From a virus: a stretch of 41,840 nucleotides of DNA. The translations under genes and the position numbers were made by a program. The stretch lies in the UHGV virus genome UHGV-0211239; one strand, 5' to 3'. Positions within the stretch are counted from its first letter, which is position 1. Each line of letters starts with the position of its first letter. The notes beneath the pieces are model-generated. The model saw only the letters and a program-made list of their open reading frames with translations, made no database searches and was not told where the DNA came from. Shown here piece after piece: positions 17,576 to 36,921 of this stretch.

Positions 17576-18048
17576 ACCTCAATCTCTCTGACCGTTCCGC
17601 CAGCCTCTTTGAATTTTGCAATCAGGCTGTCAGCCTTATGCTCGAACTGACCATAACCAGCGCCCGGCAGTGAAGCCCAGATATTGCTGCAACGGTCGAT
17701 TGCCTGACGGATATCACCGCGGTCAATCATCGGCAAAGCGCCACGCTCTTTAATCTGCTGCAATGCAACAGCATCCTGGCTTTTAGGAGAGAAGTCTTTC
17801 AGGCCAAGCTGCTTACGGTAGGCGTCCCACCAACGGGAAAGAAGCTGGTAACGGCCTGCAGCTGTTGATTTGAGTTTGGGGTTTAGCGTGACAAGTTTGC
17901 GAGGGTGATCGGAGTAATCAGTGAATAGCTCTCCGCCAACAATGACGTCATAACCATGATTTCTGGTTTTCTGCCGTCCGTTATCAGTTCCCTCTGACCA
18001 CGCCAGCATATCGAGGAACGCCTTACGTTGATTATTGATTTCCACCAT
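17572..18048 (-). CDS. R: Endolysin (lambda R-type lytic transglycosylase)
   Basis: 158 aa; near-identical to lambda R as recalled ([35 protein letters not shown]...). Confidence 0.9.
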
Positions 18049-18355
18049 CTTCTACTCCGGCTTTTTTAGCAGCGAAGCGTTTGATAAGCGAACCAATCGA
18101 GTCAGTACCGATGTAGCCGATGAACACGCTCGTTATATAAGCGAGGTTGCTACTTAGTCCGGCGAAGTCGAGAAGGTCACGAATGAACCAGGCGATAATG
18201 GCGCACATCGTTGCGTCGATTACTGTTTTTGTAAACGCACCGCCATTATATCTGCCGCGAAGGTACGCCATTGCAAACGCAAGGATTGCCCCGATGCCTT
18301 GTTCCTTTGCCGCGAGAATGGCGGCTAACAGGTCATGTTTTTCTGGCATCTTCAT
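18032..18355 (-). CDS. S: Holin/antiholin S (dual-start MKM)
   Basis: 107 aa; [43 protein letters not shown] matches lambda S. Confidence 0.9.
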
Positions 18356-18598
18356 GTCTTACCCCCAATAAGGGGATTTGCTCTATTTAATTAGGAATAA
18401 GGTCGATTACTGATAGAACAAATCCAGGCTACTGTGTTTAGTAATCAGATTTGTTCGTGACCGATATGCACGGGCAAAACGGCATGAGGTTGTTAGCGCA
18501 ACCTCCTGCCACCCGCTTTCACGAAGGTCATGTGTAGAAGGCCGCAGCGTAACTATCACTGATGAATTCAGGATAGCCAGTGGCTACGGCTCAGTTAT

Positions 18599-18673
18599 GG
18601 TGCTGGTTAACGGACTTGAACCGCTACACATTCGCTTACAAGGCGACTGCTCTACCATTGGAGCTAAACCAGC
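18599..18673 (-). tRNA. tRNA-Thr-like (anticodon UGU)
   Basis: Manual cloverleaf on minus strand: 7/7 acceptor stem, 4-bp D stem, anticodon loop CUUGUAA, T stem with loop UUCAAGU, discriminator A then CC; one non-WC pair at 27-43 and C at position 14. Confidence 0.55.
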
Positions 18674-18678
18674 ATATT

Positions 18679-18753
18679 TGGCGGGACAGCGTGGACTCGA
18701 ACCACGATAAGAAGGTTAACAGCCTTCCGTAATGACCTTTATACGACTGACCC
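18679..18753 (-). tRNA. tRNA-Asn-like (anticodon GUU), possibly degenerate
   Basis: Manual cloverleaf: anticodon stem 5/5 with loop CUGUUAA, T arm CGUGG-UUCGAGU-CCACG, encoded CCA; acceptor stem has one U-U mismatch, D stem 3 bp. Confidence 0.45.
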
Positions 18754-19010
18754 AAATAAAAAATCCCGAAACCGTTATGCAGGATCTAACTATTACCTGC
18801 GAACTGTTTCGGGATTGCATTTGCAGACCTCTCAGCCTGCGATGGTTGGAGTTCCAGACGATACGTCGAAGTGACCAACTAGGCGGAATCGGTAGTAAGC
18901 GCCGCCTCTTTTCATCTCACTACCACAACGAGCGAATTAACCCATCGTTGGGTCAAATTTACCCAACTTTATTCAAAAAGTCAATATCATGCCGTTAATA
19001 TGTTGCCATC
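18754..19010 (-). promoter_or_regulatory. Late promoter PR', qut and 6S-RNA/tR' leader (lambda-type)
   Basis: Minus-strand sequence ttgactttttgaataaagttgggtaaatttgacccaacgatgggttaattcgctcg...cccgaaac...ggtttcgggatttttt matches the lambda PR'/6S leader ending in the tR' hairpin and U-run. Confidence 0.65.
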
Positions 19011-19026
19011 CGTGGCAATCATGCTG

Positions 19027-19650
19027 CTAACGTGTGACCGCATTCAAAATGTTGTCTGCGATTGACTCTTCTTTGTGGCATTGCACCACCAGAGCGTCAT
19101 ACAGAGGCTTAACAGTGCGTGACCAGGTGGGTTGAGTAAGGTTTGGGATTAGCATCGTTACAGCGCGATATGCGGCGCTTGCTGGCATTCTTGAATAGCC
19201 GACACCTTTGCATCTTCCGCACTCTTTCTCAACAACTCTCCCCCACTGCTCTGTTTTGGCTATATCAACCGCACGGCCTGTACCGTGGCAATCTCTGCAT
19301 CTTGCGCCCGGCGTAGCGGCACTACGACAATAATCCGCATAAGCGAATGTTGCGAGCACTTGCAGTACCTTTGCCTTAGTATTTCCTTCAAGCTTTGCCA
19401 CACCACGGTATTTCCCCGATACCTTGTGTGCAAATTGCATCAGATAGTTGATAGCCTTTTGTTTGTCGTTCTGGCTGAGTTCGTGCTTACCACAGAATGC
19501 AGCCATTCCGAATCCGGCTTGTGATTGCGCCATCCCCATAGCAGCCATCACATCAGTACCGGAAAGAGAGTCAGAAGCCGTAGCCCGTGGTGAGTCGCTC
19601 ATCATCGGGCTTTTTGGCGAATGAAATTTAGCTACGCTTTCGAGTCTCAT
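19027..19650 (-). CDS. Q: Late antiterminator Q (lambda-type)
   Basis: 207 aa; essentially identical to lambda Q as recalled ([28 protein letters not shown]...). Confidence 0.9.
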
Positions 19651-28863: not shown

Positions 28864-29247
28864 ATGACACGCAGAACTCAGTTCAAAGGCAATTCACGTT
28901 CTCGTCGTCGTGAGCGTTTAAAGGCAAAGGCATTAGCTAACGGCGTACTGGCCCGCGAAGAAGCAATAAGTTCAGAAGTATTACACCGCCCTACTCTAAG
29001 CAGAGCGCAGATTCAGGCTAAAGGTACTCACGAAACGCCTGAGCGCATAGAAGACGCTAAGCCAATTAAGTTCATTGCACAGGACGTGATCTGGCAACAG
29101 AAAGAATACAGACGCAATCTGGAGCGAGCGGCCATTGTGTACGCGAATGAGTTTGGACATAAGCAACCAGAAACTGGTGTATGTCTTCCAAACGTAGCCA
29201 TTTACGCGGCAGGATACCGGAAATCAAAACAACTGACAGCGAGGTAA
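28864..29247 (+). CDS. N-like transcription antiterminator (P22 gene 24 analogue)
   Basis: 127 aa; N-terminal arginine-rich motif RRTQFKGNSRSRRRERLKAKA; first gene after the PL/nutL region. Confidence 0.7.
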   Translation: MTRRTQFKGNSRSRRRERLKAKALANGVLAREEAISSEVLHRPTLSRAQIQAKGTHETPERIEDAKPIKFIAQDVIWQQKEYRRNLERAAIVYANEFGHKQPETGVCLPNVAIYAAGYRKSKQLTAR

Positions 29248-29250
29248 GTG

Positions 29251-29475
29251 ATGAATCAGACATACATTCCATCATGCTTGAGAAATCTGCCAAAGCAGAA
29301 AGCAAAGCCCCGCAAGCAAGCCATAAAGGACGCTAAGGCAGAGGTTATTGATCAAGCAATACAATTGCTCAGGGAGGAGTTAAGAAGTGGCAAGCTCGAA
29401 GGAATGATGATGCCCTATCAGCGCGGATATCTATCGGCGATTAGTAAGTTGGAAGTATTGAAGAGTGAATTATGA
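29251..29475 (+). CDS. Small early hypothetical protein
   Basis: ATG at 29251 (track start 29248 is GTG); 74 aa, basic. Confidence 0.4.
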   Translation: MNQTYIPSCLRNLPKQKAKPRKQAIKDAKAEVIDQAIQLLREELRSGKLEGMMMPYQRGYLSAISKLEVLKSEL

Positions 29476-29537
29476 ACTATCTGGAATTTCCGGATGGTTC
29501 ATTGTTTTGGCAGCAAACCACTTATTTGAGGTGAGAT

Positions 29538-30008
29538 ATGACAAAATCATGGAGCGTACCTTTTCCTGAATCAGAAACTGAACATGATGGAATGCCTGTT
29601 TTCTGGAGATTCCAAGCGACAGTTGAAGAAGATGGAATCAAAATATTCGCACTTCAATATATAGCTTTTCATCAGACAGAGCATTATGCATGGTTGGTTC
29701 CTGCGCATTGGATTGTTGATTTTAAACCAGCACCAAATCAATGGTTACGGGAATGGAAACAAAGGATAAATAGATATGCAATTAAGAAAGTAGCAAAAAA
29801 TGCAGAAAGATCTTTTGCATTCCCAACGAAGAAACTTGCCATTGAGAGTTTATTGCGCCGGAAGAAATACCATTTAATGAGAATCAAACAAGATTTGGCT
29901 GTTGTATCAACTCTTGTTGATGGGATGAAGAATATTGATACATCAACACCAGATATTGAATATAACTTTGGACACAACCAAGAAACAGAAAATTGGGTAT
30001 TCTACTAG
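29538..30008 (+). CDS. Hypothetical early protein (AT-rich moron at esc/sieB position)
   Basis: 156-aa ORF; no TM segments or recognised motif. Confidence 0.5.
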   Translation: MTKSWSVPFPESETEHDGMPVFWRFQATVEEDGIKIFALQYIAFHQTEHYAWLVPAHWIVDFKPAPNQWLREWKQRINRYAIKKVAKNAERSFAFPTKKLAIESLLRRKKYHLMRIKQDLAVVSTLVDGMKNIDTSTPDIEYNFGHNQETENWVFY

Positions 30009-30151
30009 GACGCATAGTCGACCTTTATTTTTGGCATAAACAACAGAATAAACACTGCACTGTGTATTCATTCCAACGAGTGAATACACGGAGCAATGTC
30101 GCTCTTAACTAAACAGGAGCCGACTTGTTCTGATTATTGGAAATCTTCTTT

Positions 30152-30177
30152 GCCCTCCAGTGTGAGGGCTTTTTTAT
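30152..30177 (+). terminator. Intrinsic terminator within early-left operon (tL-like)
   Basis: gccctc-cagtgt-gagggc followed by tttttt. Confidence 0.6.
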
Positions 30178-30241
30178 ATGCATACCAATAACGCTTCACT
30201 CGAGGCGTTTTCGTTATGCAATCAAATATAAGGAGTTACCC

Positions 30242-30376
30242 ATGATGCACTTTCAGCTCGCGGGTAGCGGCGTCATGTCCGCTTTCTACCCGCACGAATC
30301 TGAATTATCACGCCGAGTTAAACAATTAATCAGAGCAGCAAAGAAACAACTGGAGGCGTTATGCGCAATGAAATAG
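30242..30376 (+). CDS. Small early protein (Kil-like position)
   Basis: 44 aa from ATG with SD aaggag (MMHFQLAGSGVMSAFYPHESELSRRVKQLIRAAKKQLEALCAMK); the track's longer start lies inside the terminator. Confidence 0.35.
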   Translation: MMHFQLAGSGVMSAFYPHESELSRRVKQLIRAAKKQLEALCAMK

Positions 30377-30594
30377 CCATCAATCACCAGATGCTTCGTG
30401 CTGCACAGAACAAAGCAGTAATAGCCAGATTTATTGGTGATTCCAAAATGTGGCTTGAAGCAAATAAAGCGATGAAATCAGCGATCAACACTCCGTGGTA
30501 TCGCAGGAAATGAGTTTTACAGATAACTGGTCAGGCGAAGAATTCATTCGTCAGATGAACAAAATGCTCAATCAGCACAAAGAACAGGAGAAAG

Positions 30595-30906
30595 ATGATG
30601 ATTCTGACTCTGAATGATAAGCGCGAAATATCACAAATAATCGCAAGTTTTACTGATGCAGATTACGAGCGAATCAACAGTGAAGTTGATCGCCTCTGCA
30701 AACGTTGCGACCCAATAAGCGAAATGCTTCGCTCATATAAACCAGATGAACACACTAAGGACGCCATCGACTGGCTGGAAGATGATGACTGTAACTATCA
30801 GGAAAAAGCCGCTGAATGGTTCTGGGATGCAATAACCGAAAGAGTTAAGGCTGAATATGCCTTCGCAATATTCAAACGCAGACATATTTATGGAGAAGCT
30901 GCATGA
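30595..30906 (+). CDS. Hypothetical protein upstream of recT (possible Abc/Gam-position anti-RecBCD function, by position only)
   Basis: 103 aa, SD aggaga; acidic. Confidence 0.45.
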   Translation: MMILTLNDKREISQIIASFTDADYERINSEVDRLCKRCDPISEMLRSYKPDEHTKDAIDWLEDDDCNYQEKAAEWFWDAITERVKAEYAFAIFKRRHIYGEAA

Positions 30907-31805
30907 GCAATATCGTTGAATTCGTTAAACAGCAAGAGCAGTTATTCTGCGGAGCATTGACTGAACAGACGGTGACATGGGCTAAGGAAAGCCAGTTTGC
31001 AATTCAGTATTTCCAGAAAAACGATTACCTTGCTAAAACGGCACTGGCAAATCCAACCAGCGCACAGAACGCCATCATCAATGTTGCGGCGATCGGTATC
31101 ACCTTAAACCCGGCTAGCAAACTGGCTTATCTGGTTCCGCGCGACGGCATGGTTTGCCTTGATATCAGCTATATGGGATTACTTCATCTTGCGCAATCGA
31201 CAGGCTCAATTAAGTGGGGGCAATGCAAACTGGTGTACTCAAACGACACCTATGAATCAAATGGCCTTGATTCAGCACCAACTCACAAATACAACGCATT
31301 TGGAGAGCGAGGCTCTATTGTTGGTGGTTATTGCACGGTAAAAACAGCAGATGGTGACTACCTGACTGAAGAAATGAGTCTGGCAGAAATTAAAGCAGTG
31401 GAAGCAACGAGCAAGGCAAAGAATGGACCGTGGAAAACATTCTGGGAAGAGATGGCGCGTAAAACAATAGTTAAACGCGCCAGCAAATACTGGCCTAAAG
31501 CCCAGCGACTGGATAATGCCATTCACCTGCTTAACGAAGATGAAGGTATGCATCAGGAACCAGTTATGCCGCACAAATCAGAGGAAGATATCCGCGAAGA
31601 TGAACGGAAACGCCAGCAGGAAATAATGGATAAAGCACAACTTCTTTGCGATGAAATGGCTCAGGCAGAAAACATGGATGATTTGAAGCGATATTTTGCA
31701 GAAGCATATCGCCTGACATCTGGAATGAAATTGCAGCAGAACGTACAAGCCATTTACATAGAATGCAAAGCGAAACTGGAGGTTGCCAGTGAGCAAACTG
31801 TATGA
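30903..31805 (+). CDS. recT: RecT-family single-strand annealing recombinase
   Basis: 300 aa; NGPWKTFWEEMARKTIVKRASKYWP resembles RecT signature region as recalled. Confidence 0.8.
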   Translation: MSNIVEFVKQQEQLFCGALTEQTVTWAKESQFAIQYFQKNDYLAKTALANPTSAQNAIINVAAIGITLNPASKLAYLVPRDGMVCLDISYMGLLHLAQSTGSIKWGQCKLVYSNDTYESNGLDSAPTHKYNAFGERGSIVGGYCTVKTADGDYLTEEMSLAEIKAVEATSKAKNGPWKTFWEEMARKTIVKRASKYWPKAQRLDNAIHLLNEDEGMHQEPVMPHKSEEDIREDERKRQQEIMDKAQLLCDEMAQAENMDDLKRYFAEAYRLTSGMKLQQNVQAIYIECKAKLEVASEQTV

Positions 31806-32271
31806 AATAGCCAATGAATACGCAAAGCTGATGGATTCAGATTTAGAGCCAGAGATGATTGCTGACACAATAGAAGGCATGGAAGGAGAATTTACCGATA
31901 AAATAGAGCAACTTCTTGCCATTATTAAAAATGAATCTGGTTATGCTGAACGCCTCAAGGAAGAGGCAAAGTCACTGAATGAGCGAGCCGCAGTAATTCA
32001 AAATAAGATTGAGAGCATCAAATCATATATAGCGTCATCGCTTGAAATGGTTGGCAAGAAAAAGATTCGAGCAGGTATTCACCAGGTAACAATCCGCAAA
32101 CCGTCAGAAACTGTAGAAATCATCGACTCAAGCGCCCTTCCTCCTGAATACGTTGAGTTTGAAACGACAATTAAAGCCGACAAACTGGCAATCAAACACC
32201 AACTAAAAGCAGGAATAAATATCCCCGGCGCTCAACTCAAAGTTGGGAAACCTTCACTTCTTATCAAATAA
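31789..32271 (+). CDS. Hypothetical protein (Gp157-like partner often seen with phage recombinases)
   Basis: GTG start at 31789 with SD ctggagg; coiled-coil-rich; family assignment from memory, unverified. Confidence 0.45.
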   Translation: MSKLYEIANEYAKLMDSDLEPEMIADTIEGMEGEFTDKIEQLLAIIKNESGYAERLKEEAKSLNERAAVIQNKIESIKSYIASSLEMVGKKKIRAGIHQVTIRKPSETVEIIDSSALPPEYVEFETTIKADKLAIKHQLKAGINIPGAQLKVGKPSLLIK

Positions 32272-32282
32272 CGGTATCGACT

Positions 32283-32597
32283 ATGAAAAAGACTCCATGG
32301 GAGAAATGGGAAGTCGATTTCTTGCGCGAGGTAGCGGCGACAATGCCAGTTGAAGTTATCGCTGAAAAACTGGAAAGGACTGAAAAAGCAGTAATGGCGA
32401 AAGCAACAAGGATTGGCGCTGACATTGTTAGCCGACTTCGTGGAAGACGATGGACAAGAGCCGAAGTATCACTTTTCGGTAAGTTCTCCGCAGAAGAAAT
32501 AGCAATTGCAACCTGCCGCTCAATTTATTCAGTAAGAGCTATGCGATACAAGCTAAAAAAACTCGATGAAGAAAGAGCAGGCATACGAATAAATTAA
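32283..32597 (+). CDS. Hypothetical early protein
   Basis: 104-aa ORF with ATG start. Confidence 0.5.
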   Translation: MKKTPWEKWEVDFLREVAATMPVEVIAEKLERTEKAVMAKATRIGADIVSRLRGRRWTRAEVSLFGKFSAEEIAIATCRSIYSVRAMRYKLKKLDEERAGIRIN

Positions 32598-32613
32598 CAT
32601 GGAGTAATTAACA

Positions 32614-32895
32614 ATGAAGCTAAACATCGACCTTGGAAAATACGTTATTACCGGAACCAAACACGACCTGATTCTTAGTGAAAGAGGAATTATCAAAGAA
32701 GGCGAGAATGCAGGGAAAGAAACACTAAGTCGTATCGGTTATTACAGCAAGTTTGAGCATCTGGTTAAAGAGTTATGCAACCGTGAAATCCTGTTATCTC
32801 AGGCGCAGACACTACAGGATATTCAGCAGCATATCGAGACTTTAGGTGTATCACTTAGCACGGCTGTTGACCAGTTCGCGGAGAGTAAATCATGA
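32614..32895 (+). CDS. Hypothetical early protein
   Basis: 93-aa ORF with ATG start. Confidence 0.5.
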
Positions 32896-33055
32896 GAGGA
32901 CTTGCATACAATCCCGGCATTCTTCCGGCAGAAATGATTATTCGCCAACGCGTAAAGCCAATGCCATCGAGAGAGGAATTGCTCAAGAGAAATTCTTTTC
33001 CATCAGTAAATCAAAACAAATATCTGAATGCGATGTTGCGCAAAGGAGGTAACCA

Positions 33056-33541
33056 GTGACTGGACATGCAGCAATCCTCGACATGTGCTGTGGCAGTCGC
33101 ATGTTCTGGTTCGATAAGAAGGACGTCCGGGCGATATTTAGCGATATCAGAAAGGAAGAGCACACATTGTGTGATGGACGACGGCTGATAATTAGCCCTG
33201 ACCTGATAGCAGATTTTCGTGCATTACCATTTGCAGACGCATCGTTTCCGGTTGTTGTATTCGACCCTCCGCATCTTGAGCGTGTTGGTGATAACGCCTG
33301 GATGGGAAAGAAATATGGACGGCTGAATAAAGATACCTGGCGTGATGATTTGCGGCAGGGATTTAAAGAAGCCTTTCGTGTGTTGCGGCCATACGGCGTT
33401 CTGATTTTTAAATGGAATGAAACGCAAATACCTGTTCGCCAGATATTGGCACTGACCGACAGAAAGCCTGTTATCGGTCAACGAACAGGAAAAGGTGACA
33501 AGACCCACTGGATTATTTTTATGAAGGAGGGCAACCAGTGA
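33056..33541 (+). CDS. Putative SAM-dependent DNA methyltransferase (small phage MTase)
   Basis: 161 aa, GTG start with SD aaggagg; motif I-like ILDMCCGS and motif IV-like VVFDPPH. Confidence 0.4.
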
Positions 33542-34314
33542 ACAAGATTGACTATCAGGTACTGCGTGAAAAAGCAGAGAAAGCAACGTGTGGTGAGTGG
33601 TCGCTCGAATATGGAGAGAGCCGATTTGATTGTGATGATGCGCTAATTCATCGTGACGTTGTTGGATATCTTCCCATTTGCAGAATTGAAGGAGCGCATC
33701 CTGAAAGCGGTTTCGATGAAGATTTCCAAATGGAACAGCAGGCCAATGCTGAATTCATCGCTGCAGCCAATCCGGCTACCGTGCTGGCACTGCTGGATGA
33801 ACGGGAAAGAAACCAGCAATACATCAAAAACCGTGATCAGGAGAACGAGGATATTGCGCTAACGGTAGGGAAGCTGCGTGTTGAGCTGGAAGCCGCAGAG
33901 AACAACCTTATTGATAGTGAGTGCCATGTTGCTGAACTGGAAGAAGCGCTACGCGATAAGCAGGCGTTACTTGAAGCATCAGAGAAGCGCATAGCAGAAC
34001 TGGAAGCCGAACCTGTAAGCCAGGCTTACAAGTTGAACGCGCTGGATGGCAACTCTCCGGTAACTCCGGATGGTTGGGTTATAGTGCCGAAGAAACTAAC
34101 CGCTGAGAACGGCGCTAAGGGTGTGCTATCCGGTGAATTTTCAGAAACTACGTTTATAAGCTGCCCGGAATGCTTTGGTGATGATGATTGCGAAACTTGT
34201 GACGGCAGCGGGAGAATCGAAATCAAGGTTCCAGTCAGTTGGACAACTATCAAAACTATTTGGGCTAAAGGGTGTGAGTACTTTTCAATAGTAGCACCGC
34301 AGCAAGATGGGTGA
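33538..34314 (+). CDS. Ead/Ea22-like early protein
   Basis: 258 aa, GTG start with SD gaaggagg; central coiled coil; Cys-rich C-terminal CPECFGDDDCETCDGSG; family assigned from memory. Confidence 0.55.
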   Translation: MNKIDYQVLREKAEKATCGEWSLEYGESRFDCDDALIHRDVVGYLPICRIEGAHPESGFDEDFQMEQQANAEFIAAANPATVLALLDERERNQQYIKNRDQENEDIALTVGKLRVELEAAENNLIDSECHVAELEEALRDKQALLEASEKRIAELEAEPVSQAYKLNALDGNSPVTPDGWVIVPKKLTAENGAKGVLSGEFSETTFISCPECFGDDDCETCDGSGRIEIKVPVSWTTIKTIWAKGCEYFSIVAPQQDG

Positions 34315-35031: not shown

Positions 35032-35376
35032 ATGTCAGATTTGGCTATGAAGGTTTTGAAATGGCAATCGACTGGCGATGTCGGCATCAGTAGCGCAACT
35101 CTTGCCTCAATCGCATGTGGACTGAAAAAGAATATCTATGGTCATCACTTCGGCGCTCCCCATGACGCAGCAGACTTTAGGCGATGCGTTGCACTTGTTG
35201 AGCAGATTCCAGAAATCAGAGATTCATTCGACAAGGTTGCAAAGCGCGTTCCGGCATTCAAAGGAATCCTCAACGAATGGGATTCACTCGTTGCTCTGTT
35301 GAAGTCTGAAATGAAGATACACGGAAACAAAGCACCAGAGACTTACAGAAGAATCAGCGAGCTACGCAAGGACTAA
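35032..35376 (+). CDS. Hypothetical protein upstream of xis
   Basis: 114-aa ORF with ATG start. Confidence 0.5.
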   Translation: MSDLAMKVLKWQSTGDVGISSATLASIACGLKKNIYGHHFGAPHDAADFRRCVALVEQIPEIRDSFDKVAKRVPAFKGILNEWDSLVALLKSEMKIHGNKAPETYRRISELRKD

Positions 35377-35476: not shown

Positions 35477-35824
35477 GTGGAAGAAGAAATCTTCACTCGT
35501 GAAGAAGCTGCGTCGTATCTGAAGGTAGACAAAGGCACTATCACGCAGTGGATACGAAGTGGACGACTTCAGGCCGCAAAGATAAATCCAGATAAACCTA
35601 AAAGCCCATATCGCATTTGCAAGTCAGACTGCATTGCGGCGCTTAAGTCTGTGAGACACAATAGCGCGGTGAATGCGGTTGATGTGCAGGAGGTTAAAGC
35701 ATGTCAATCAAACTACGCGGTGGCACGTGGCACTGCGATTTCGTCGCGCCAGATGGATCAAGAGTTAGACGCTCTCTTGAAACATCGGACAAAAGGCAAG
35801 CGCAAGAACTTCACGATCGTCTGA
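35477..35824 (+). CDS. xis: Excisionase (MerR-like HTH)
   Basis: TREEAASYLKVDKGTITQWIRSGRL HTH near N-terminus; immediately upstream of and overlapping int. Confidence 0.65.
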   Translation: MEEEIFTREEAASYLKVDKGTITQWIRSGRLQAAKINPDKPKSPYRICKSDCIAALKSVRHNSAVNAVDVQEVKACQSNYAVARGTAISSRQMDQELDALLKHRTKGKRKNFTIV

Positions 35825-36861
35825 AAGCAGAAGCGTGGAGAGTAAAAAATCTCGGGGAATCGCCGAAAAAGCTATTCAAGGAAGCCTGCATACGGTGGCT
35901 GCGTGAGAAATCGGATAAGAAGTCCATTGATGATGACAAGAGCATTATATCGTTCTGGATGTTGCACTTCAGAGAAACCATTCTCTCTGACATAACAGCA
36001 GAAAAAATAATGGAGGCGGTAGACGGGATGGAAAACCGCCGCCATCGCCTGAACTGGGAGATGAGCCGGGACAGGTGTTTGCGGCTTGGCAAGCCAGTGC
36101 CGGAGTATAAACCAAAGCTGGCAAGCAAAGGAACGAAGACGAGGCATCTGGCAATACTTCGCGCCATTCTCAATATGGCTGTTGAATGGGGATGGATTGA
36201 CAGGGCGCCAAAAATATCAACACCACGCGTTAAGAATGGACGCATTAGATGGCTTACAGAAGAAGAATCAAAGCGCCTGTTTGCAGAAATAGCTCCTCAT
36301 TTCTTCCCTGTTGTCATGTTTGCAATCACGACAGGCCTTCGCCGCTCCAACGTTACAGACCTTGAGTGGTCACAGGTCGATCTGGATAAGAAAATGGCAT
36401 GGATGCACCCTGATGAAACAAAAGCTGGCAATGCGATCGGAGTTCCTCTTAACGAAACCGCATGCCAGATATTAAGAAAACAGCAGGGTCTCCATAAGAG
36501 ATGGGTATTTGTCCACACCAAACCTGCCTACCGAAGCGACGGAACAAAAACAGCAGCGGTAAGGAAGATGAGAACCGACAGCAACAAGGCATGGAAGGGA
36601 GCGTTAAAGCGGGCAGGCATTAGCAACTTCCGATTCCATGACTTGAGGCATACTTGGGCAAGCTGGCTGGTTCAGTCCGGTGTCTCTCTTCTTGCACTTA
36701 AAGAGATGGGAGGATGGGAAACTCTCGAAATGGTTCAAAGATACGCTCACCTTTCAGCCGGGCATCTCACCGAGCACGCGAGCAAAATCGATGCGATTAT
36801 AAGTCGCAATGGCACAAATACGGCACAAGAGGAGAACGTGGTTTACTTAAATGTGAGGTAA
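35701..36861 (+). CDS. int: Tyrosine integrase (P22 Int-like)
   Basis: 386 aa; catalytic-domain motifs (HDLRHTWASWLVQSGV, MGGWETLEMVQRYAHL); attP adjacent. Confidence 0.9.
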   Translation: MSIKLRGGTWHCDFVAPDGSRVRRSLETSDKRQAQELHDRLKAEAWRVKNLGESPKKLFKEACIRWLREKSDKKSIDDDKSIISFWMLHFRETILSDITAEKIMEAVDGMENRRHRLNWEMSRDRCLRLGKPVPEYKPKLASKGTKTRHLAILRAILNMAVEWGWIDRAPKISTPRVKNGRIRWLTEEESKRLFAEIAPHFFPVVMFAITTGLRRSNVTDLEWSQVDLDKKMAWMHPDETKAGNAIGVPLNETACQILRKQQGLHKRWVFVHTKPAYRSDGTKTAAVRKMRTDSNKAWKGALKRAGISNFRFHDLRHTWASWLVQSGVSLLALKEMGGWETLEMVQRYAHLSAGHLTEHASKIDAIISRNGTNTAQEENVVYLNVR

Positions 36862-36876
36862 CTTATTGATTTAAAT

Positions 36877-36921
36877 GGTGCCGATAAGAGGAGTCGAACC
36901 TCCGACCTTCGCATTACGAAT
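36877..36921. other. attP core: 3' half of a tRNA-Thr gene (thrW-type)
   Basis: Reverse complement reads AUUCGUAAUGCGAAGGUCGGAGGUUCGACUCCUCUUAUCGGCACCA (anticodon loop, T arm, acceptor, CCA); 16 bp after int stop. Confidence 0.7.

Follow-up and report, generated by a model that had tools for sequence, protein, structure and literature searches.

Two tandem tRNA genes in the late leader of a P22-like Escherichia coli phage, and the probable role of tRNA-Thr in replacing host tRNA destroyed by nucleases

The locus discussed here lies in UHGV virus genome UHGV-0211239, a sequence of 41,840 nucleotides that is called the window below. Directly downstream of its late terminator are two tandem tRNA genes, for asparagine and threonine, and they raise a simple question: are they working genes, and if so, what does the phage gain from them? 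A sequence-only reading had described both genes and several irregularities in their structures, and considered that they might be either functional phage tRNAs or decaying copies.

The phage is of the P22-like (Lederbergvirus) type and has E. coli as its host. This is concluded from its best relatives, namely IME10, APC_JM3.2, and Kapi1-like and P22-like phages, together with a match to sar, the antisense RNA from the immI region of P22 (41367–41433, plus strand; Rfam RF00262, 72.7 bits). The sar match also suggests that a whole genome, circularly permuted, makes up the window. The phage has a late regulatory region of the lambda type.

The tRNA genes and their setting

ARAGORN and Rfam agree on two tRNA genes on the minus strand, which is the late strand, directly 3′ of the terminator tR′. 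The first is tRNA-Asn(GUU) (18679–18753), which has 75 nt including an encoded CCA, and G73. It is followed by a 5-nt spacer, AAUAU (18674–18678; AACAU in phage 21 and Sf6), and then by tRNA-Thr(UGU) (18598–18673), which has 76 nt including an encoded CCA, A73, and a private G46U change. The Rfam scores are 55.3 bits for Asn (E = 2.2e-09) and 59.9 bits for Thr (E = 1.2e-10), compared with a gathering score of 29 bits for RF00005; with these scores and E-values, which were computed over the whole window, both calls are far beyond chance. The sequence-only reading had identified the same two genes and placed them at 18599–18753, within 1 nt of the ARAGORN span of 18598–18753. ARAGORN found no other tRNA gene in the 41,840-nt window, and in particular none for Lys(UUU).

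The tRNA-Asn has the complete set of core nucleotides (U8, A14, G18–G19, U33, a purine at 37, G53–C61, and U54-U55-C56), and tRNA-Thr has the same set except at position 14, which is C rather than A. In E. coli, tRNA-Asn is recognized by its anticodon G34-U35-U36 and the discriminator G73, while the identity set of tRNA-Thr is G1–C72, C2–G71, G35, and U36. As read from the sequence, the phage tRNA-Asn carries both the GUU anticodon and G73, and its aminoacylation is predicted. The phage tRNA-Thr carries its full identity set, in the acceptor stem (GCUGGUU...AACCAGC) and in the anticodon UGU.

The order on the late strand is Q, P_R′, tR′, Asn, the 5-nt spacer, Thr, a 242-nt leader, holin, endolysin, and Rz/Rz1. 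Q (19027–19650, minus strand) is a lambda-type late antiterminator of 207 aa (Q/gp23-like; Pfam PF03589 Antiterm, E = 1.3e-57), which is 100% identical to the Q protein of HK446 (gp54). The late promoter found by the promoter scan (18956–18984, minus strand) consists of TTGACT, a 17-nt spacer and TAAATT, and is P_R′-like, aligning to lambda P_R′ with two mismatches; the HK446 record marks the equivalent promoter as ‘similar to coliphage lambda PR' with 2bp mismatch’. The intrinsic terminator tR′ (18754–18815, minus strand) is a hairpin at 18815–18763, with a folding energy of −23.9 kcal/mol (z −5.4), followed by the U-tract UUUUUAUUU at 18762–18754. G1 of tRNA-Asn, at 18753, is the base right after this U-tract. 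On the other side of the pair, an imperfect hairpin of 50 nt (18541–18590, minus strand) begins 7 nt after tRNA-Thr. The rest of the lysis-gene leader (18356–18540, minus strand) is common to lambda and Sf6 in the alignment, and leads to the first late protein gene, an open reading frame for a lambda S-like holin (18032–18355, minus strand; 99% identical to the HK446 holin).

The leader is a mosaic, as is seen on alignment with lambda, Sf6, phage 21 and Klebsiella phage Mulock. The upstream segment is lambda-like, with tR′ nearly identical to that of lambda through the U-run. The 159-nt cassette that follows is Sf6/phage 21-like, and from AACTGAGCCGTAGCC onward the window sequence is again common with lambda. 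The late leader of lambda (P_R′, 6S RNA, tR′, S) is about 97% identical to the window across Q, P_R′, tR′, the hairpin of 50 nt and the leader of S, but where the window has the cassette, lambda has an unrelated stretch of 163 nt. No tRNA or tRNA relic was found in this stretch by ARAGORN or by Rfam.

The 50-nt hairpin marks the downstream boundary of the tRNA cassette in the mosaic. It folds with −26.7 kcal/mol (z −6.4, 20 bp) and is conserved in lambda (44951–45000), Sf6 and phage 21 (locus L002, about 1071–1120). In phage 21 it has a U7 tract directly 3′ and is terminator-like, whereas the hairpin in the window has no U-run. It had previously been taken for a tRNA-like fragment. The element exists, but it is a plain hairpin: Rfam gives no tRNA signal at 18541–18590 even at E ≤ 10, the alignment with the tRNA-Arg that phage Mulock has at that position is unconvincing, and the same element is present in lambda, which has no tRNAs. 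A tRNA relic was therefore rejected here. Among 22 variants of the hairpin there are no compensatory double changes and no excess over shuffled controls.

The Asn(GUU)–Thr(UGU) cassette in the late leader is already known from many phages of the lambdoid and P22-like groups. Annotations of it exist for Sf6, phage 21, BTP1, SfI, Kapi1, and mEp506, and the records of Sf6 and phage 21 place tRNA-Asn and tRNA-Thr directly 3′ of the late terminator. The SfI genome paper (2013) described two tandem tRNAs downstream of Q and listed one or both at the same position in Sf6, ST64T, PS3 and phage 21, citing a 1991 paper on the late region of phage 21. The 671-nt leader of the window is 98%–99% identical to those of HK446, mEp506, phiv205-1, and Kapi1, and the 171-nt segment with the tRNAs is 98.8%–99.4% identical to phage 21, SfI, BTP1, and mEp506, with a 100% match in the chromosome of E. 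coli CAU16175. Compared with phage 21 and HK446, tRNA-Asn is identical at 75/75 positions and tRNA-Thr at 75/76. Cassettes of the phage 21/Sf6/HK446 type have the same gene order as the window, a 5-nt spacer, the same position between tR′ and holin, and the trailing hairpin. They differ in what lies upstream: in HK446, mEp506, Kapi1 and the window the cassette stands behind Q, P_R′ and tR′ of the lambda type, whereas in Sf6, phage 21 and ST64T these are of the phage 21 type.

At least 80% of the tRNA pair was found in 59 phage records, and the full pair in 355 of 5,426 complete E. coli genomes (about 6.5%). A distant BLAST search of E. coli genomes with the pair retrieved no core host tRNA genes. 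Host genes were rejected as a recent source of the cassette, since thrU and asnT of K-12 are clearly divergent from the phage genes. Viral contigs were also scanned with a 15-mer from the D-arm of tRNA-Asn, giving 120 loci. ARAGORN found no tRNA in 25 of these, nearly all of them chance matches in unrelated contigs, and they were left out of the variant tallies. The tR′ context in related contigs is of the phage 21 type in 70 copies, the lambda type in 13 and the Mulock type in 10. The cluster is Asn-Thr in 79 of the sampled loci; the other arrangements include Asn-Phe-Thr-Arg(-Gly), Asn-Thr-Arg and Asn-X-Gly.

Both genes in the window are real and should be annotated as tRNAs; they are omitted from the records of HK446 and several other phages. 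In the HK446 RefSeq record (NC_019714.1), neither tRNA is annotated at 35097–35252, although ARAGORN finds both. A 2026 preprint credits HK446 with ‘a single’ Thr(UGU) tRNA, the adjacent tRNA-Asn having been overlooked.

tRNA-Thr and its anticodon stem

The reading that we favor is that both are intact and functional phage tRNA genes, that tRNA-Thr replaces a host tRNA destroyed by nucleases, and that tRNA-Asn may by inference do the same, with supply of tRNA for ACA codons as a secondary matter. We put the probability of this reading at roughly three in four. In the proposed mechanism, the phage tRNA-Thr would stand in for host tRNA-Thr(UGU) that is destroyed by Toprim anticodon-arm nucleases of competing elements.

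Evidence comes from published work on very close relatives. The tRNA-Thr of phage 21 (Thr21) protects against P2-OLD and resists cleavage; its anticodon stem is shorter and it carries the changes C28U/G42A, and its resistance has been attributed to the altered CNG motif and the shortened stem. The 2026 preprint reports that the tRNA-Thr of HK446 gives strong counter-defense against OLD. It also reports that one viral Thr tRNA rescued neither lambda itself nor the toxicity of OLD in a recB mutant.

The Thr sequences of phage 21 and HK446 are identical, and that of the window differs from them only at position 46 (U rather than G). The anticodon arm is therefore the same: positions 27–31 are GUCGC and 39–43 are GCGAA, with UCG at 28–30, CGA at 40–42, and G27·A43 unpaired, which fits the published description of Thr21. 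This implies that the 27–43 ‘mismatch’, listed earlier as an imperfection, corresponds to the described resistance feature. The role of this mismatch in Thr21 would follow by analogy from the mutational dissection of a related tRNA, tRNA-Thr6. The Thr(UGU) tRNAs that counter OLD (tRNA-Thr6, Thr21, and those of T4, Bas32 and HK446) have the UGU anticodon, have lost the CNG pseudo-palindrome by having U28–A42 in place of C28–G42, and have a shortened anticodon stem, and the window is alike in each respect. It differs in that the tested alleles have G46 and were assayed from plasmids, whereas the allele in the window has U46 and lies in a late leader. The window would thus provide another tRNA of a temperate phage whose odd anticodon stem counters a prophage-borne tRNase, P2 OLD. 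The function against OLD was published in 2025–2026 for tRNAs that differ by one base, and so the present case is not new in kind.

Other elements of HK446 connected with OLD were also looked for. No homolog of its OLD inhibitor Oad2 (gp27) is present in the window, and its trigger Gp33 has only a partial match of 20 aa (30510–30569). The recombination region (30903–31805, plus strand, and neighboring open reading frames) codes for proteins of the RecT and Sipho_Gp157 families. A Pfam scan of the open reading frames in 28864–34314 gave RecT, Sipho_Gp157, N peptide, DUF5405, Ead/Ea22 and two weak matches, and no other family.

An alternative is that the main function of the pair is codon supply, with no link to defense systems. 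The sequence-only reading had proposed a check of codon usage, and the window was compared with a 50-kb sample of K-12. ACA has about double the frequency in the window (16.1 per 1000, or 29.5% of Thr codons) that it has in the K-12 sample (6.9–8.5 per 1000, or 13.7%–15.7%), and the SfI paper reports the same bias. However, Asn codons (AAT + AAC) are barely enriched, at 49 per 1000 compared with 37–41, and the SfI authors found no bias that would explain tRNA-Asn. The codons AGA (10.8 per 1000 compared with 1.5), AGG and ATA (13.3 compared with 3.3) are far more enriched than ACA, yet the phage has no matching tRNA for them. Codon supply can thus play a part for ACA, but it fails to explain this pair. 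It also leaves the conserved changes in the anticodon stem unexplained, and expression of host thrU does not give the protection given by phage Thr tRNAs. We consider codon supply unlikely as the main function, although extra capacity to decode ACA may be a secondary benefit. A useful comparison is the ileZ-argN-argO cluster of the lambdoid Stx phage 933W, which we take to lie downstream of Q, in the stretch from the late promoter and terminator to the first late genes. In its late placement it presumably resembles the window, but its genes are for Ile and Arg, read rare codons, and are usually explained by codon supply.

A second alternative is that the genes are decaying or non-functional pseudo-tRNAs in a prophage, and that their mismatches are the result of erosion. 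All the irregularities that had been pointed out are present in the sequence, namely G27·A43 and C14 in tRNA-Thr and U4·U69 in tRNA-Asn, and the private G46U change in tRNA-Thr can be added to them. They were assessed by counting cloverleaf pairs in distinct variants of the two genes, 16 of Asn and 19 of Thr. G27·A43 is unpaired in 19/19 Thr variants, position 4–69 is non-standard in 15/16 Asn variants, and C14 is found in 17/19 Thr variants, including the functionally tested tRNAs of phage 21 and HK446. Elsewhere in the stems there are compensatory double changes, at pairs 6–67, 7–66 and 28–42 in Asn and at pairs 3–70, 5–68 and 6–67 in Thr. The covariation scores of Asn and Thr are each above all 500 shuffles and all slid controls. 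It is concluded that the ‘imperfections’ are conserved features of the lineage and that the tRNA structure is under selection.

Decay is thus not supported by the irregular pairs: they stay fixed throughout the lineage while co-variation is seen at other pairs, and in the phage 21 ortholog the short anticodon stem has been described as part of the resistance to P2-OLD. The change peculiar to the window is G46U, in the variable loop; none of the 88 Thr copies from the sampled viral contigs carries it, and among 336 E. coli records it is found in 1. Clearly damaged copies do occur in relatives. In ST64T (L127, 788–856), tRNA-Asn is intact and the second gene, tRNA-like but divergent, has an anticodon loop that has collapsed (Rfam 42 bits, no ARAGORN call); it is probably a pseudogene, and single variants elsewhere carry damage in the T-loop or anticodon loop. 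In the window, however, the Rfam scores are about twice the threshold, and the Asn sequence is identical, and the Thr sequence one base off, to the tRNAs of phage 21 and HK446, whose tRNA-Thr has been shown to function in vivo. Erosion is therefore very improbable.

Equally improbable is a mainly cis-acting role, as punctuation by RNase P or RNase E that would separate a 6S-like leader from the lysis mRNA: tRNA-Asn stands right after the terminator U-run behind two types of tR′ (in 70 loci of the phage 21 type and 13 of the lambda type sampled) and a strong hairpin lies 3′ of tRNA-Thr, but in lambda this leader and hairpin exist without tRNAs, and Mulock-type loci have no adjacent terminator U-run. 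The related idea that the pair compensates for a host tRNA gene disrupted by integration, raised as a possibility by the authors of the 2026 preprint, was rejected because attP (36859–36921, minus strand; 96.8% identical to HK446 attP and adjoining the integrase open reading frame at 35701–36861) resembles host thrW (tRNA-Thr CGU), of which it carries the 3′ part, and is unrelated to the late-leader tRNA-Thr(UGU), while Kapi1, which also has the cassette, integrates at argW and leaves that gene intact.

tRNA-Asn and the pair

Replacement of destroyed host tRNA, as favored above for tRNA-Thr, may apply to tRNA-Asn by the same logic. A candidate nuclease is provided by the 2025 paper on PARIS, which showed that AriB cuts the host tRNAs Lys(UUU), Thr(UGU) and, less efficiently, Asn(GUU), between positions 40 and 41 and beside a UAAU motif. 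Lys(UUU) is the primary target, and tRNA-Lys is required for rescue. The phage tRNA-Asn has U36-A-A-C39-C40-U41 where the host has U36-A-A-U39-C40-C41, and the phage tRNA-Thr has U36-A-A-G39-C40-G41 where the host has U-A-A-U-C-A. Both phage tRNAs therefore differ from the host at 39 and 41, so that the positions flanking the AriB cut are changed. In addition, host asnT has CNG on each of the two anticodon-stem strands, and the phage tRNA-Asn has none.

These differences can be combined into the proposal that Asn-Thr is a two-part counter-defense module, in which tRNA-Asn would also be nuclease-resistant through loss of CNG and through C39 and U41. We put this forward tentatively, as possible but on balance doubtful. 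In Mulock-type tRNA-Asn the 28–42 pair is C–G and CNG is back on both strands, so that resistance of the OLD type cannot be general for Asn. As regards PARIS, the window has no tRNA for its primary target Lys(UUU), and the pair alone should therefore not defeat it. The set of Lys, Thr and Asn tRNAs by which T5 neutralizes AriB is a close parallel, and the window shares two of these three main targets, Thr(UGU) and Asn(GUU). T5 differs in being a lytic phage with a large tRNA array.

The combination of Asn and Thr also recurs elsewhere. P1 has adjacent genes with the same two anticodons in the same order, Asn(GUU) then Thr(UGU) (L131, 75–228), although their sequences and context differ from those of the window: P1 tRNA-Thr is about 81% identical, keeps CNG and has an anticodon stem of 5 bp. 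N4 is possibly a further case. Here ARAGORN calls Ser(UGA) and Thr(UGU) (L132, 1–236), the tRNA-Thr having U28/A42 and a 5-bp stem, and at the edge of the locus, upstream of Ser, a tRNA-like sequence of which the 3′ part is present, with GTT as its anticodon, can be read by eye as a partial Asn gene. If the module proposal is true, the recurrence of Asn(GUU) and Thr(UGU) in unrelated phages (lambdoid and P22-like phages, P1, and possibly N4) would suggest that these are critical targets of some widespread tRNase. Such a tRNase could be a relative of OLD, or of PARIS but lacking the Lys specificity.

Expression and cluster variants

The tRNAs would be co-transcribed from P_R′. The promoter scan found no other promoter-like site between P_R′ and the tRNAs, so that strong expression should need Q. 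For high-level synthesis, Q would have to carry transcription through tR′, which directly adjoins the 5′ end of tRNA-Asn. RNase P would then release the two 5′ ends, and trimming by exonucleases would proceed back to the genome-encoded CCA.

The sequence-only reading had gone further and suggested that the tRNAs are made only from Q-antiterminated transcripts. The abutting terminator and the lack of another promoter-like site agree with this, but ‘only’ is too strong in view of the expression of the orthologs in BTP1 lysogens. In the BTP1 paper, five genes exceed 100 TPM in cultures of the lysogen, a count given as ‘excluding the two tRNA genes’. Its supplementary table gives about 3–15 TPM for Q and about 5–48 TPM for holin, the tRNA values not being among those given. 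The orthologs are highly expressed in lysogen cultures, so that leakage through the terminator, or spontaneously induced cells, already give a substantial signal. Late, Q-dependent expression is oddly timed for an answer to a nuclease whose trigger comes early in infection.

An RNA-seq paper on lysogens of Kapi1, the leader of which is 98% identical to that of the window, describes a clear signal antisense to the tRNAs, and cites a similar antisense signal between the BTP1 tRNAs and the holin gene. On the plus strand, which is antisense to the tRNAs at 18598–18760, the scan found a terminator-like site at 18947–18967 but no promoter. The antisense signal could be an artifact of very abundant structured tRNA. 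Alternatively, this transcript and the hairpin after tRNA-Thr could belong to the regulation of the proposed module.

Longer clusters are found at the same position in Klebsiella phage Mulock (L004, 901–1220) and in L012, L066, L090, L117, and L123. They consist of Asn-Phe(GAA)-Thr-Arg(UCU), to which L090 adds Gly(UCC). In L016 (1215–1287, 1294–1365), L042, L105, L108, and L119, tRNA-Asn is followed by a chimeric gene, with positions 1–26 from the phage tRNA-Thr and 27–76 thrU-like (Rfam 47 bits, no ARAGORN call), and then by a glyT-like tRNA-Gly(UCC). Gly(UCC) is another reported target of OLD. The only changes in the anticodon arm of the chimera are G42U and U43C, which shorten the stem and break CNG on the 3′ strand. 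Judging from these sequences, the chimera looks as if the phage gene had recombined with the thrU-tyrU-glyT operon of the host and had then undergone an anti-nuclease change of the same kind.
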